From Candidatus Fervidifonticultor secundus (GTDB lineage Bacteria > Sysuimicrobiota > Sysuimicrobiia > Sysuimicrobiales > Humicultoraceae), in the NCBI GenBank assembly GCA_031459385.1, contig JAVKIP010000002.1, positions 190,091-254,090 of the forward strand: a DNA stretch of 64,000 nt. The letters run 5' to 3'. Made by a program: the position numbers. Positions 18,001 through 24,000 of the stretch are shown in pieces (position 1 is the stretch's first letter; each line of letters begins with the position of its first letter).

Positions 18001-21000
18001 GTGGCCAATATGTATAATAATTCGCGGTTTCCCCCCAGGCACCTTCCGGGCCAGGCGAGCGACCGTCAACACCCCACCAGATCAGCCAGAATCTGCGCTG
18101 CCGGGCTGCTGGCCCACGCCCGCAGTGCGCCCAGGGCGCTGCGGGCCCGCTCGCCCTCAGCGTACCGCAGGGATCGGGTGAGATCCACGCGGTCGGCCAG
18201 GCCGGCCAGCGTGTAGCGAACGCCCTCCCCGAGGTCTTCGCGGGCAAGCACCCCGGCTTCTGTCAGGACGGCCAGGACGGCCTCAAGCTCGGCCGCCGTG
18301 CAGCCGGCCCCCTGGAGGGCAGGAGGATGCCCGGGCACGGCGTTGATGGATCCGCCCGCGGCGCGGATCGCGCGGTAGCAACGGGCGAGCGCCGCCCGCG
18401 ACGGAAAAACCGCGTCGAGCGCGGCTTCTGCTCCGGCCAGGTGGTCTGGCGGGTAGGCGAGGACCACCGTCGCGGCCCGCCCCCCCAGCCCGGCGAGCCC
18501 CAGTTCCTCCGCGGCCAGCAGAGGGTCGGGCCGCAGGGCCAGCGCAACGACGCGGCGCGCATCGGGTGGAATCGCGGGATCGGTCGCGTGGGTTCCGAGG
18601 ACCAGGCACGCAAGGCGCCCGGCGCCAAACAGGTCCTCGAGGACGCGTCGCAGCGTCGTCGGCAGTCCAGTGTGGTAGTAGGCCACCCGGTGGCGGCCTG
18701 TGCTCCCCTCGTGGAGACGCGTGGCCAGCGACACGCTGGCTGCGGGATCGGCGACCAGCACCAGCGTCTTCTCCAACCTGCCATCCGGCCGGCGGGCGGT
18801 AAGCCACGCGTCGGCATCCCGCCCGCGCCGGTCGATCACGCGCAGCGCCGCGCGTGGCCCGGTCCGAACCGCCGGCACCCCGAAGGCCCGCGCCGCGTGC
18901 CCGCCCAGGACAGCCGGCGGGATGGAGCCGATCAGGAGGCGCACTGCACCGCCGGCCCGATCGAGCAGGTGCTCGACCTCATCCGCTGCCACGGCGTCGC
19001 CCACCACCACCGCCGGAGCGGCCCGGTCGCTGTTGCGGTCGATCCAGGCCAGCGACGCGATCAGCAGGTCGAGCCGCCCACGCTCCAGGGCTTCGGCCAC
19101 CCGGCCGGCGGCGCCGGGCGAGACCGCCCCGTGGATCACGGCTGCCCGGACACCCAGGCGCCGCAGCCATGGTATCATCAATTCCCCCCACGCCTCCGCA
19201 ACCGCCGCACGCGGCACGGCCAGGACGACTGGCCGCCGGGTGGAGACCCATACCGCCAGGGCAGCCATGACGGCCGTGGGCACGAGCCCTCGCCCTGGAC
19301 CCAGCGGGAGGACCAGACGCTCGCCGCCCTGCAGCCGCGCCAGGATCTCGCGCTGCGCGGCCGTCGGCGCGCGGCCGCGCAACAGACGGGCAGCGAGGAA
19401 GTCCGTGAGGTCGGCGCCCGCCGGCCAGCGCGCCGACGGGGCCTGGCCTTCCTCCTCCTCCGGCCATGCCGGTGCCTCGCGCTCGACCAGGATGTTGAGA
19501 CCCCACGCGCGCTCCCCGCCGCCGGTCACTGCCACCGCCGTCGCCGCATACCGTGCACCGGCGTCCATGGCGGGGGCCAGATGCGCGGCGAGACGTGCGC
19601 GAAGGAAGCCGAGCGGGGTGCCATCGAGCCGCCGAACCTGCACCGCGTACGGGTCGCTCGGATTGCGGGGTTCGCGCACCAGGCGGAGTCGCTCTCCGGG
19701 CCTGACGGTCTGTACAGCAGCTTGGCGTCCCGCGTAGGTCACGCCGACGACCTTGGTGTGGAAGGCCTCGGCCTGCTCAAGCGGCCGCCGCTCGCCGTCG
19801 AGGTAGTCGGACGCGCGCGCGAAGAGCCGGTCCAACACCTGGACAGCATCGGCGGTCACGGCCTCCAGGTCTACCCCGGGCGTCGCCATGTCCACCGCGA
19901 CGAGCTGCACCGCCGGCGGATCTACCCAGGGATCCATCGCGAGGGTGTAGGCCAGGTCCACGCGCGCGCGAGTGAAGGCCAGGAGTTCGGCCTTCTCGCC
20001 GTGTCGAAAGGCGATCGCCTCGACCGTCCGGCGGCCGTCGCCGACCACCAGGCGCAGGTGCGCACCGTCGCCCACCAGCGTCGTGCCCACGGCCTGCAGG
20101 CCTCGCGTCAGGAACACCGGCTCGGGGTTGCCCGGCCCATGGGGCGCCAGGCGGCCCAGTGCGTCCACCAGCTCGGGCGAGAGCACGCTCAGGTCGACCT
20201 CGGCATCCGCCTCCACCACCGGGCGAAGATCCTCGGGCGTGACGCGAGTGGCCACGGCCTGCTCGAACGCGCGGGCGAACGCTGCGGTGGCGCCGGCAGC
20301 GATCACCAGCCCCGCGGCCATGGCGTGGCCCCCGTAGCCGAGCAGATGGCGGTCGGCCTCGCGAAGCGCCTCCAGCAGGTGCACGATCGGGATGCTGCGG
20401 GCCGAGCCCCGGCCGCGTTCTCCCTCGAGCGCGATCATCACCACGGGACGATGAAACCGCTCCACCAGCTGCGAGGCTACGATGCCGATCACACCTGGGT
20501 GCCAGCCCTCCTGCGCCAGGACGACGGCCGGCCGGTCGAGCAGACCCTCGCGCTCCACGCGCTCAAGCACCTCTGCCAGGACCGCGTCGCAGAGTTGGCG
20601 GCGCTGCGCGTTGAGCCGGTCGAGGCCCTCGGCCAGCGCCCGCGCTTCCTCCGGGTCATCGGTGAGCAGCAGGCGCACCGCGTCGCTCGCGTGGGCCAGC
20701 CTGCCGGCAGCATTGAGCCGCGGGGCCATGCCGTGTGAGATGTCCCGCACCGCAAAGGGCGGCCGCACGCCGGCCACCTCGACGAGCGCCGCGAGCCCCG
20801 GCCGATGCGGCCGCGCCAGGGACGCCAGTCCAGCAGCGACCAGCACACGGTTGTCCCCCAGCAGCGTCACGGCGTCTGCGACCGTGCCGATGGCGGCCAG
20901 GGGTACCAGGTCGTCGGGGACTGCGCGGCCCGCACGGCCAAACAGGGCCCGCGCAGCCTGGAAGGCCAGCCCGGCCGCGCAGTAGTCTTCGGGCGGCGGG

Positions 21001-24000
21001 GACGTCCGTTTGGGATTCACCAGCGCCGCAGCGGGCGGCAGGACCTCGGGGGGTTCGTGGTGGTCGAGCACCACCAGGTCCACGCCCGCGGCGCGGGCGG
21101 CCTCCGCAGCGGCGTGGGCCCCGGTGCCGCAGTCCACTGCCACCAGGAGCCGGATGCCGCGCCCGGCCAGGGCCGCGACGGCTTCCGGATGGAGCCCGTA
21201 GCCTTCCCGGCGCCGGTCGGGGATATAGAACTCGACGTTGCCCCCGAGGGCGCGCAGGGCGCGTACCAGGATTGCCGTGGCCGTCACGCCGTCGGCGTCG
21301 TAGTCGCCGTACACGGCCACGGGCCGGCGCGCACGGAGGGCAGCGTCGATGCACCCGACCGCCCGCGCCATGTCGCTCAGCCGGAGGGGGTTCTGGAGCC
21401 TGTCGAGCCGCGGGGCGAGGAACGCGTCGGCGGCCATGGGGTCGCGGAGCCCGCGGTTGACCAGCACCTGAGCGACCAGCGGGTGCAGGCCGAGCGCCGC
21501 CGACAGCGCCGTGGTCGCCGCCGGGTCGGCCGGGGCGATGCGCCAGCGCGGAGCCTGGTGGCGCGTCTGCGTCATCACCCCACTACGGCTCGCGCCAGGG
21601 GAGAGAACCTGCGGCCGGTCCTATGGGCGATCCTGGCGCTCCGCCGATGGGCGGGCAGCCTCCAGTTCGCGCACGCGGGCCTGCAGGTCGCGCACCCGTG
21701 CGCGGAGGTGCTGCTGCCCCAGCAGGCTGCTGATGAACACCAGGACGCCGCCGACCACCGCGCCGCCGACCACCGCCAGAGCCACTGTCGTCTGCGCCCG
21801 CCAGACCAGGAACCGGAGCACGACCGGCTCGGGGTTGTACAGGGCGAAGACGGTGACCCCGACCAGCAGGATTAACGCGAAGAGCGTGAACGCCGACACG
21901 CGGGCTCCTAGCGCCGGCGGGGCCGGCGGCGCGCCGGCGCCGCCGGCACGGCCGCGGGTTCGGCGTCCGCGGTCCGCGCCAGCGGTCGGGCCGGGGCCTC
22001 CTCCCGCCGCCCGGTCCGGCGATCCGTCCACAGATGCCAGTCGACCAGCAGGGCGCTGGCATTGAACACCGACGAGTACCCCCCGGTCAGAATGCCGATC
22101 ATCAGGCCGAAGGCGAAGTCGCGCACCGTCACGCCCCCGAAGACGTACACGGCACCGATCGCCATGACCGTGGTCAGACCGGTCGTAATCGACCGCGCCA
22201 GCACCTCGAGGATGCTGCGGTTGACCAGCCGGTCGAAGGGCTCGCGGGGACGCTGGGCCAGGTTCTCGCGGATGCGGTCGTAGACGATGATCGTGTCGTT
22301 GATGGAGTACCCGACCACGGTCAGCAGCACAGCCACGAACGTACTGTTGACTTCCTTGCGGGTCAGGGCGAAGACCCCGACCACCAGCAGGAGGTCGTGC
22401 AGCAGCGCCATGTCAGCCGTCAGTGCGTACCGCACCGACTTGAACCGGTAGGAGATGTACAGCACCTGCAGCGCCAGCCCCAGCACGACCGCCACGATGG
22501 CGATGTTCCGGAGCTCGCGCCCGATCTTTGGCCCGACCTCCTCCTCCCGCAACACCGTCAGCCGGCCGAACGTCTGCCGGAGGTCGGCCAGCAGGGCCCG
22601 CTTCGCGTCGTCGTCGAGCGGTCGCGTACGGATGATGGCTTCCTGCCCCGCTTTCTGGATGATGCTCTCGCCGGTGGCATGCCGATCGACCACCGCTCGC
22701 ACGTCGGCTACCTCGAACGGCCGCTCGATGACGAACTGGAAGAAATCGCCGCCGGTGAAGTCGATCCCCCAGTTGAGCGCACCCCGGCCGGCGGCGACGT
22801 TGATCACCAGTGCCGCCACACCGGGGACGATGAGCGCCACCGACAGCAGGTAGCCCCAGCGCCGGGCGCCGATGATGTCCCAGGGCCGCGTGCTCATCGC
22901 GCCACCGGCCCGGCCACGCGGACCAGCGCGGCGCCCAGCCCCGCGGCCACGGCCCCGTCCACGAACACCCGGGTCACGACGATCGCCGAGAACATGCTGG
23001 CCAGCACGCCCAGGCTCAGCGTGACCGCGAACCCCCGAATCGGACCGCTGCCCAGCAGGAACAGGACCACGCCGGCGAGCAGGGTCGTCACGTTGGAGTC
23101 GAGGATGGCGGACATGGCGCGGCTCCAGCCGGCCGTGATCGCAGCCCGCAGCGTCTTCCCGGCGCGCAGTTCCTCCTTGGTGCGCTCGAAGATGATCACA
23201 TTGGCGTCGACCGCCATGCCCACCGACAGGATCAGCCCGGCGATGCCGGGCAGGGTCAGCGTCGCGTGCAGCCCCACCAGCAGCGCCAGCACCACGAGGA
23301 GGTAGACGCCCAGGGCGAGGGCGGCCAGGAGCCCCGGCAGGCCATAGTAGAGGACCATGAACCCGACGACGGCAGCCCCCGCGACCCAGCCGGCCTTGAC
23401 GCTGGCATCGATCGAATCGCGACCCAGCTGCGGCCCGACGGTGCGGTTCTCCACGACCTCCACGGGAATGGGCAGGGCGCCGCCCCGCAGCAGTACCGCC
23501 AGGTCCCGGGCCTCCTCGATGGACTGGAAGCCACCGCTGATGACTCCGCGCCCGCCCGTGATACGGTCGCGGATCACCGGCGACGAGATCACCTCATTGT
23601 CGAGCACGATGGTCAGGTAGCGTCCGATGTTCTTCCCGGTGAACTCCTCGAACACGCGTCCGCCACGACTGTGGAACTCAAACTGCACGATGGGCTCCGC
23701 CGTGGTCTGATCGAACGCGGCGCGGGCATCTCGGAGATCGCCGCCCGTCAGGATGACAGTCTTCGGCAGCGCCAGCGGCGCAGGCGCCGGCTGGCCGGGC
23801 GCGGGCGGGGGCAGGGTCACCGTCTTGCCGTCGGCGCTCCACCGCGCGCCCTCCGGCAGCCGCTGCGCCCCGGTGTCCACGAACTCCAGCAGCGCGGTCT
23901 TCCCGATGAGGCGGATGGCTCGCTCGGGTTCGTCGATACCGGGCAGCTCGACGATGATCCGGCTGGTGCCCTGTCGCTGGATCGTCGGCTCCACGACCCC

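Follow-up and report, generated by a model that had tools for sequence, protein, structure and literature searches.

A housekeeping RecJ joined to a HIRAN domain and a predicted RecQ-type pseudo-helicase across a bacterial phylum

RecQ and RecJ of the RecF(OR) pathway are separate proteins in E. coli and D. radiodurans, with RecF, RecO, RecR and RecA as partners. Proteins of the HLTF/Rad5 type carry a HIRAN domain and a two-lobe SF2 module in one chain; their motor is of the Snf2 type and active, and they have no nuclease. The HIRAN domain of HLTF binds the 3'-OH ends of single-stranded DNA. The C-terminal domains of RecJ from D. radiodurans and T. thermophilus (5f54, 2zxo) and from S. aureus (8y30; PF10141 type) comprise about 130 to 200 residues and have no helicase lobes. 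Finally, Cdc45 is described (PMC4873980, PMC3307487) as a member of the RecJ family that no longer acts as a nuclease and has become a scaffold for a helicase.

The window analyzed here, a 64,000-nucleotide stretch of the genome of Candidatus Fervidifonticultor secundus (Sysuimicrobiota), encodes a protein in which the two enzyme families of the RecF(OR) pathway are united in one chain with a HIRAN domain between them, and RecF, RecO, RecR and RecA are present in the genome as well. In contrast to HLTF and Rad5, the SF2 module is of the RecQ type, is predicted to be dead and is joined to RecJ. Cdc45 resembles this protein in that a repair or replication enzyme is kept as a non-catalytic structural part, and it is the mirror image of it: Cdc45 pairs a dead RecJ part with a live helicase, whereas the window protein pairs an intact RecJ with an apparently dead one.

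The genome (3.30 Mb, 97.6% complete) contains a single RecJ, and reading of the neighboring genes placed it between secDF and relA, as the earlier note had stated. The gene has a G+C content of 70-75%, and an alternative ATG start at 21575, one codon after the GTG, would yield a protein of 1169 residues that is identical to the database protein P0002. The RecJ part scored 472.5 bits with the NCBIfam model recJ (TIGR00644, equivalog cut-off 396.9), covering model positions 2-544 of 546. Its DHH motifs are intact (GDYDADG 91-97, DHH 172-174), and residues D92, D94, D96, D172, H173, H174, G416, G417 and H418 are invariant across 21 relatives. Judged by its sequence, the protein is very probably the housekeeping RecJ of the organism, a predicted 5'-3' single-stranded DNA exonuclease, fused with HIRAN and a RecQ-family pseudo-enzyme core. 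The order RecJ, HIRAN and RecQ-like SF2 module, proposed earlier, was recovered by Pfam, phmmer and the predicted fold (Table 1).

Table 1 Features of the recJ locus in the window and of the encoded protein.
Feature	Residues	Window position	Strand	Remarks
relA/spoT		15749-17956	-	neighbor of recJ
recJ gene		18066..21578	-	1170 codons from GTG 21578; stop codon 18066-18068
DHH domain	87-232	20883..21320	-	Pfam E 8.7e-22
DHHA1 domain	352-443	20250..20525	-	Pfam E 5.3e-15; GGHAMAAG at 416-423
RecJ OB-fold (RecJ_OB)	458-562	19893..20207	-	Pfam E 7.8e-22
HIRAN (PF08797)	605-683	19530..19766	-	Pfam E 7.8e-13; 48.5 bits, gathering threshold 24.7
Acidic linker, predicted disordered	684-719	19422..19529	-	mean pLDDT 47, 50 and 71 in the three 10-residue blocks that open the tail model
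Degenerate RecA-like lobe 1	720-904	18867..19421	-	tail model, alignments
Q motif remnant	740-746			lobe 1
Motif I, GPGRGL	760-765	19284-19301	-	no Lys, no Ser/Thr
Motif II remnant, VVVGDAV	857-863	18990-19010	-	the RecQ aromatic loop behind it is deleted (9 residues)
Motif III	880-887			lobe 1; lost
Degenerate RecA-like lobe 2	905-1041	18456..18866	-	tail model, alignments
R-x-x-L..D-R-R-G element	908-920			lobe 2; kept
Motif IV, YYHTGLP	967-973			lobe 2; kept
Motif VI, EELGLAGLGGR	1024-1034			lobe 2; both arginines lost
C-terminal winged helix-turn-helix	1042-1170	18069..18455	-	P-x-R..L..Y and D-L..S-x-R-Y-x-E-G common with active relatives
secF		21908-22897	-	neighbor of recJ
secD		22894-24294	-	neighbor of recJ

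The nearest kin of the tail are the RecQ helicases, by profile and by fold. A structure model of the tail (450 residues), which the earlier note lacked, was predicted with confidence (pLDDT 90.9, pTM 0.91) and consists of two RecA-like lobes and a winged helix; in a Foldseek search with this model RecQ cores topped the list (1oyy, E 7.9e-15). With the profile of the tail family, RecQ-family cores from the PDB ranked first (RecQ 4tmu, E 5.4e-47; RECQ4, 1.1e-44; 1oyw, 1.9e-44), well ahead of Hel308 (3e-28), so that the former statement of no PDB sequence match no longer holds; with the window protein as a single sequence, DrRecQ alone was found (E 0.016). A phmmer search with residues 690-1170 against 1.84 billion representatives gave 136 matches at E<=1e-3, the majority of them RecJ proteins of 1050-1310 residues with GRGKS and DEAH; the proposed homology of the tail to helicases stands. 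The best NCBIfam models of the active relatives were recQ and recQ_fam (149-194 bits), followed by DpdF (95-121 bits); against the RecQ family cut-off of 219.8 bits (TIGR00614 / TIGR01389) these relatives reached 149-189 bits and so fell short of it. The tail of the window protein alone matched no Pfam family and no NCBIfam model at E<=0.01. It differs from RecQ in the missing ATPase motifs and in the zinc-binding and HRDC parts: no Pfam match to RQC, HRDC or RecQ_Zn_bind was obtained and the sequence contains no four-cysteine cluster, while a winged helix-turn-helix follows lobe 2.

The residues for ATP binding and hydrolysis and the aromatic coupling loop are gone from the tail while the modeled fold is intact, which shows, at the level of sequence and model, a dead motor. 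Among the 74 phylum rows that could be read, drawn from 73 genomes, a Walker A K[ST] occurs in none (0/73 rows without the two unpublished genomes, G016 and G024, that are included among the phylum rows), a motif II D-E in 0/82 and the two motif VI arginines in 0/83, whereas active relatives have each of them in 44/44 rows, together with DEAHH and its aromatic loop, TAT and GRAGRDG. The loss of the Walker A lysine and of the DEAH box was thus noted correctly. The claim that later motifs stay conserved was right for the R-x-N-L..D-R-R-G element and for Y-x-H-x-G-L-P (motif IV) and wrong for motifs III, V and VI, which are degenerate. Motifs Ia and Ib are degenerate in the phylum as well; in SF2 helicases, Ia, Ib and V are the motifs touching single-stranded DNA.

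Part of the motif I loop is kept, with P761 in 92% and G762 in 87% of 78 phylum rows, and one family (f3) has an arginine at the position of the Walker A lysine (GRGRR/GRGRA). This glycine-rich G-P-G-R-G loop would fit a tail that has kept NTPase activity, or senses nucleotides, by means of non-canonical residues. However, in 74-83 rows there is not one with the Mg-binding Ser/Thr, with the catalytic Glu or the DEAH His of motif II, or with the pair of arginine fingers, and we know of no SF2 enzyme that works without them; this reading is highly improbable.

Each of the seven families that make up the phylum shares the motor loss, and the earlier view of a pseudo-helicase throughout the phylum is confirmed. 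In the tree (root position undefined), a branch with an SH-aLRT of 100 sets 32 phylum rows apart, and by sequence the loss appears to be one event. Of the 94 phylum genomes, 86 yielded the tail (50 of 54 among those of high quality) and 89 yielded HIRAN, inside open frames of 1100-1340 residues. The tail is under purifying selection despite the dead motor, with dN/dS of 0.115-0.34 in all seven pairs computed; values for the part upstream are 0.07-0.22, and lobe 1, the most relaxed part, reaches 0.41. At matched RecJ divergence the identity of lobe 2 is 0.33 in the dead lineage versus 0.52 in the active one, meaning that the lobes evolve faster when dead. A functionless remnant heading for deletion would account for this constraint, looser than in the RecJ core, and a truncated relative (P0133, 883 residues) is known outside the phylum; such a remnant is nevertheless scarcely credible given the dN/dS values, the lack of internal stop codons in all 89 matches, the presence of the tail in all seven families and its confident predicted fold. 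Purifying selection, the fold and the retained winged helix together argue for a retained function.

Active enzymes of equal domain order and length, annotated as RecJ, occur in cultured Coriobacteriia (Collinsella, including Collinsella aerofaciens, Olsenella, Parafannyhessea and Atopobium) and in cultured Bacillota (Thermincola potens, Peptococcus simiae and Selenihalanaerobacter). Their tails are homologous to that of the window protein from end to end, including the winged helix and its motifs, and intact-motif members such as P0050-P0052 were matched by the window tail at E down to 1e-19. In these enzymes the helicase lobes are more conserved than the RecJ core, whereas the reverse applies to the window lineage. 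The four intact-helicase relatives counted previously have become very many, and the RecJ-HIRAN-helicase architecture, which had been called new, is not rare; we found no published description of either the active or the dead form. A stand-alone RecQ above the family cut-off is encoded as well by the two named Coriobacteriia that were checked and by 26 of 61 genomes sampled from this class. Hence the proposed replacement of RecQ by the fused helicase is not supported as a general rule, and since many Coriobacteriia have a normal RecQ beside the fused enzyme, the ancestral job of the latter may not have been that of RecQ.

The genome under study has no recQ_fam match at cut-off (best 54.8 bits against 219.8), and of the 94 phylum genomes three have a canonical RecQ and 91 do not. 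The absence of RecQ from the genome under study agrees with the earlier note, as does the presence of RecO, RecR and RecA, to which RecF can be added; the helicase-nuclease inventory has to be corrected. Directly after recA a 1014-residue fusion of a UvrD-type helicase with a PD-(D/E)XK nuclease is encoded, one of two UvrD-type helicases in the genome. Both helicases would suit an alternative in which the dead tail is not a DNA binder and serves as a protein-docking platform that recruits SSB, RecO/RecR, RecA or an active helicase, for instance of the UvrD type. Its nucleic-acid motifs are degenerate, yet it has preserved its fold and scattered positions on its surface, and a precedent exists in the C-terminal domain of D. 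radiodurans RecJ, which is reported to bind HerA (PMC4663267). The winged helix and HIRAN are, however, DNA-binding folds, and conservation in the phylum falls mostly on positions that active helicases conserve too, which speaks against a new interface; we regard docking as unlikely.

We infer that the dead tail most likely serves RecJ by holding DNA or separating its strands without ATP, and the explanation as a whole, a housekeeping RecJ with HIRAN and a dead RecQ core serving as a passive DNA-holding part, is slightly more likely than not. The ancestor would have been an active RecJ-HIRAN-RecQ-like enzyme similar to those that Coriobacteriia and Bacillota have today, in which the motor would unwind DNA, RecJ degrade the 5'-ended strand and HIRAN hold the 3'-OH end. 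In the phylum the motor would have been lost and the tail kept as a passive part. Tail and HIRAN would then hold the 3'-ended strand or the junction of single- and double-stranded DNA, with the winged helix on the duplex, and the hydrolysis-driven pull of RecJ on the 5' strand would lead to resection or gap widening for RecFOR-RecA, any further unwinding coming from the UvrD-type enzymes. This clamp or wedge mechanism in itself is tentative, with slightly less than an even chance. As a precedent, the additional domain at the C-terminus of D. radiodurans RecJ is reported to increase both its DNA binding and its nuclease activity (PMC4663267). Hints of DNA binding are the winged C-terminal domain, the constraint on HIRAN in the dead lineage and the net charge of the tail, which is +3.1 in 78 dead rows versus -4.0 in 44 active rows, although this shift could stem from the high G+C content of the gene and not from function. 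Observations that count against a clamp or wedge are the degenerate SF2 motifs for single-stranded DNA contact, the deleted aromatic loop and the relaxed lobes.

By analogy with HLTF, the HIRAN domain, the only copy in the genome, is a predicted 3'-end binder. Within the phylum it is the best-conserved domain (mean pairwise identity 0.70, versus 0.59 for the RecJ core), which it is not in the active-helicase lineages (0.395). The linker to the tail is predicted to be disordered, so that no fixed geometry is implied. The strong constraint on HIRAN in the dead lineage, the flexible acidic linker between the two modules and the status of the protein as sole RecJ of the cell would be compatible with a gate, in which tail and HIRAN keep RecJ off DNA or auto-inhibited as long as no 3'-OH end or junction has been engaged, so that a processive and potentially dangerous nuclease would act on proper substrates only. 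But this idea is purely inferential, and HIRAN is dispensable in some lineages, being missing from 10 of 41 active relatives scanned; a gate therefore seems improbable.

A joint reading that goes beyond the passive DNA-holding part is less likely than not. Here a thermophilic phylum would run RecFOR-type repair without any RecQ-family ATPase, with the two RecA-like lobes, winged helix and HIRAN of the pseudo-helicase acting as an ATP-free wedge and 3'-strand clamp, and a decay series would lead from the active RecJ-HIRAN-RecQ-like enzyme through the dead full-length tail and half tails to the C-terminal domain of Bacillus and Staphylococcus RecJ as the last vestige of the winged helix of the helicase. 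If true, RecJ would be a self-sufficient resection engine. The winged-helix end of the tail may correspond to the domain that closes Staphylococcus RecJ at its C-terminus, a homology offered as a lead only: the window protein had no Pfam match to PF10141 (ssDNA-exonuc_C), and the profile search with the C-terminal domain did not recover 8y30 by sequence.

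The sole RecJ of the genome, encoded between secDF and relA, had been described in the earlier note as continuing into a HIRAN domain and a helicase-like tail, and this description held. The product scores 472.5 bits against the NCBIfam recJ model (cut-off 396.9), the gene is flanked by secD/secF and relA/spoT, and the 3.30-Mb genome encodes one RecJ and one HIRAN domain, both in this protein. The open frame, the Pfam and NCBIfam scores, the gene neighbours and RecJ catalytic motifs that are invariant across 21 full-length relatives therefore establish that the observation is correct at these coordinates.

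Coordinates of the recJ gene, its domains and other features discussed in the text. G and C numbers denote genomes and their contigs.
Feature	Position	Strand	Remark
recJ	window 18066..21578	minus	single open frame, 1170 codons from GTG; database form from next-codon ATG, 1169 aa
DHH	residues 87-232		Pfam
DHHA1	residues 352-443		Pfam
RecJ_OB	residues 458-562		Pfam
HIRAN	residues 605-683		Pfam
ORF with uracil-DNA glycosylase superfamily domain	window 25409-26659	minus	416 aa
UvrD-helicase/UvrD_C/PD-(D/E)XK nuclease	L102:5485-8529 = G000:C12:160984-164028	minus	1014 aa, single chain; domain matches
RecQ-family match over cut-off	G066:C17:25725-26768		one of the sole three in the phylum
RecQ-family match over cut-off	G039:C1:293300-294331		one of the sole three in the phylum
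RecQ-family match over cut-off	G069:C19:61401-62399		one of the sole three in the phylum
HIRAN-bearing frame	G081:C2:9335-9532		frame of 1139 aa; family f5, genus g28
HIRAN-bearing frame	G083:C11:248144-248362		frame of 1109 aa; family f5, genus g28

Taken alone, tail residues 690-1170 gave chance-level rows only in Pfam (E ≥ 0.03) and no match in NCBIfam. A phmmer search of PDB sequences with this single sequence found DrRecQ only, weakly (E 0.016). In genome contigs the single tail gave 599 pattern matches, none of which was confirmed as a relative. Against 1.84 billion cluster representatives, phmmer returned 136 matches at E ≤ 1e-3, most of which were proteins of 1050-1310 aa with a RecJ core, usually HIRAN, and an intact DEAD/Helicase_C/ResIII helicase. 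Among 41 relatives scanned, 30 carried HIRAN, ten a helicase without HIRAN, and one, the 883-aa database protein P0133, RecJ domains only. A profile of 19 dead tails (those lacking the ATPase motifs) and nine active ones retrieved RecQ 4tmu (5.4e-47), RECQ4 (1.1e-44), E. coli RecQ (1.9e-44) and DrRecQ (1.9e-39) from the PDB, with Hel308 behind the RecQ proteins (3e-28). The active relatives score best on the NCBIfam models recQ and recQ_fam, at 149-194 bits, without reaching the family cut-off of 219.8, and possess RecQ-style motifs (PLRALVxDQ, DEAHH followed by an RPAY aromatic loop, R-x-NL, YHAGL and Q-x-x-GRAGRDG). The RecQ-headed profile matches, the sub-cut-off scores and these motifs thus indicate, at the level of sequence, that the tail is RecQ-related and lies outside the curated RecQ family, from which it differs in having neither a Zn cluster nor HRDC. 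AlphaFold2, given an alignment of 90 rows, modelled the tail with confidence (pLDDT 90.9, pTM 0.91) as a disordered acidic linker, then two α/β lobes, then a small C-terminal domain.

Motif I has become GPGRGL in the window's protein. Of motif II a lone Asp is left, in VVVGDAV, and a deletion of nine residues behind it has taken away the aromatic loop; motif III is missing, motif V is degenerate and motif VI has the sequence ELGLAGLGG. Motif IV (YYHTGLP) and the R-x-x-L..D-R-R-G element are kept. The phylum is represented in the genome collection by 94 species from one order and seven families, the source labels of its MAGs being Armatimonadota or Firmicutes, and the tail was found in 86 of the 94 genomes and in 50 of the 54 of high quality. 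When all 88 matching tail pieces were aligned to an active reference, none of 74 readable phylum rows (73 genomes) had the Walker A K[ST], none of 82 retained the D-E of motif II, and none of 83 had both motif VI arginines (five rows kept one), compared to 44 of 44 active representatives for each motif. Leaving out the unpublished genomes G016 and G024 gave 0/73, 0/80 and 0/81, respectively. Loss of the Walker A lysine and the DEAH box throughout the phylum, as proposed in the earlier note, is therefore confirmed by these counts. HIRAN was detected in 89 of the 94 genomes, including two whose tail escaped the query with the window's tail (frames of 1109-1139 aa). The tails of the two g28 genomes have diverged beyond recognition by the window's tail at E ≤ 1e-5 and evolve faster than any others in the phylum.

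In an unrooted maximum-likelihood tree of 86 rows (at most seven per family, drawn from rows of at least 430 residues), all 32 phylum rows fell on one side of a branch with an SH-aLRT of 100, consistent with a single, ancient loss of the motor in the phylum. Short helicase matches of 484-572 aa were considered as stand-alone paralogues and rejected; since the tree pairs every one of them with a full-length fused protein as its sister, they are most likely fragments cut by contig ends. Two HIRAN-less RecJ-helicase fusions, the database proteins P0129 (1095 aa, Eubacteriales MAG; GSPATRM/MEEFHY) and P0056 (1093 aa; GSRRAEQ/LDDLPE), have also lost the motifs; placed on long branches, these two stand apart from the window's phylum and may have become pseudo-helicases independently.

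No stop codon was found inside the tail matches of the phylum. In seven pairs analyzed by the Nei-Gojobori method, dN/dS was 0.115-0.34 for the tail and 0.07-0.22 for the part of the gene upstream of it, lobe 1 being the most relaxed part (up to 0.41). Within the phylum, mean pairwise identity was highest for HIRAN (0.70), followed by the RecJ core (0.59), lobe 2 (0.47), the C-terminal domain (0.44) and lobe 1 (0.36), whereas in active lineages the lobes (0.40 and 0.49) are better conserved than the RecJ core (0.38) and HIRAN (0.395) is not special. Constraint on the lobes is therefore reduced but not gone, and HIRAN became the best-kept part; selection still acts on the tail. It is unlikely that the tail is a cryptic nucleotide binder, and also unlikely that it is a functionless remnant, both readings being disfavoured by the motif and dN/dS data.

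The C-terminal domain, comprising the last 137 residues, folded alone with a pLDDT of 92.7 into a model that resembles a winged helix-turn-helix. The ArsR/SmtB repressor 8qkf was matched (E 2.8e-4) by a profile built from 25 of these domains; Foldseek with the model returned nothing at E ≤ 0.001, and winged helix-turn-helix proteins made up its weak rows and almost all of the VIA rows. PF10141, the Pfam family for the C-terminal domain of Bacillus-type RecJ, matches the corresponding region in active relatives and gave no Pfam match in the window's own protein. The profile did not retrieve S. aureus RecJ (8y30) from the PDB by sequence, and a homologue search aimed at short PF10141-type RecJ yielded only fused proteins among the matches listed (120 of 790). 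Kinship between this domain and PF10141 is a lead, and the window's protein may also account for the C-terminal domain found in Firmicutes RecJ. In P0133 (four cluster members) the RecJ tail matches only lobe 2 and the C-terminal domain (query 248-472), and the protein looks like a half-tail intermediate between full-length and short RecJ forms.

In agreement with the earlier note, RecO and RecR, together with RecF, score above their cut-offs in the genome, recA is present, and no RecQ-family match reaches its cut-off. Across the phylum such a match was found in only three of 94 genomes, in frames of 699-1800 aa, two of them in open frames of 1776-1800 aa, lengths that suggest a RecQ-like gene which was acquired or fused, and not a housekeeping RecQ. 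The supposed lack of AddAB or RecBCD stood in part: the genome yielded no second nuclease subunit (one PDDEXK_1 match only), but a 1014-aa protein encoded directly downstream of recA is, judged by its domains, a RecB/AddA-like helicase-nuclease. Its locus lies about 26 kb upstream of the window, in the order cinA, recA, UvrD/nuclease, rny, ymdB, and a second UvrD-type helicase is encoded on another contig.

Active RecJ-HIRAN-helicase fusions annotated as 'single-stranded-DNA-specific exonuclease RecJ' occur in Olsenella uli, Parafannyhessea umbonata, Atopobium fossor and Atopobiaceae MAGs, and are likewise annotated RecJ in Thermincola potens, T. ferriacetica, Peptococcus simiae, Bacillota MAGs, Peptococcaceae, Clostridia and Selenihalanaerobacter shriftii. 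Searches of species-level genomes with two peptide patterns taken from the active tail matched at least 598 stretches, of which at least 557 were confirmed; the best 80 of these were Coriobacteriia by record title, save one Alloprevotella sp. and one Ruminococcus sp., and included Collinsella aerofaciens DSM 13712. With the active form so widespread in named Coriobacteriia and Bacillota, the architecture cannot count as new at the sequence level; the finding of the earlier note is real and its outline right, but novelty of the architecture was overstated. The window's protein is a new, dead form of an unstudied yet widespread RecJ-HIRAN-RecQ-like fusion family; no publication on a RecJ-HIRAN or RecJ-helicase fusion was found by the full-text searches made, in which joint matches to 'RecJ' and 'HIRAN' were mostly author names (Hirano). 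Nor does the idea that the fused helicase takes RecQ's place apply as a general rule: Olsenella porci and C. aerofaciens each encode a stand-alone RecQ over cut-off beside it, as do 26 of 61 genomes sampled from Coriobacteriia, most of the others having only a sub-cut-off match in a frame of 1100-1390 aa. The fused helicase cannot simply be taken for the RecQ of the cell.

In the textbook picture of gap repair and end resection in bacteria, RecQ is the helicase and RecJ the nuclease of a pair. A single-chain protein of this type with a 3'-end reader occurs naturally and widely, including in the common human-gut Collinsella, and the window's phylum offers a natural experiment in which the motor appears to have been off for long, the module is selected and no other RecQ exists in 91 of 94 genomes. 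The phylum thereby separates the structural contribution of a RecQ-type module to RecJ from that made via ATP hydrolysis. In the window's protein, RecJ and HIRAN are both intact, and the RecQ-type module is folded, unable to use ATP and kept by selection. We propose that tail and HIRAN grip the 3'-ended strand or junction, with HIRAN at the 3'-OH and the winged helix at the duplex, and that RecJ draws in the 5' strand and degrades it; the former motor would in effect now be a wedge and clamp. Rival readings make the tail a protein-docking platform or a substrate gate. In D. radiodurans RecJ, according to one study (PMC4663267), an extra C-terminal domain increases both DNA binding and nuclease activity; the same domain binds HerA.

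Elsewhere in the window, a 416-aa ORF has its uracil-DNA glycosylase superfamily domain in residues 243-402 only, its 240-residue N-terminal part being without a Pfam match. Only the contigs of four hot-springs metagenome runs, all from a single study and perhaps the source, contain the recJ stretch at full length; the five sequencing runs listed with the stretch, their kind guessed as DNA, included no RNA run. The hot-springs occurrence fits a thermophilic organism, and because its source is a probable thermophile, the window's protein should suit biochemistry and cryo-EM.
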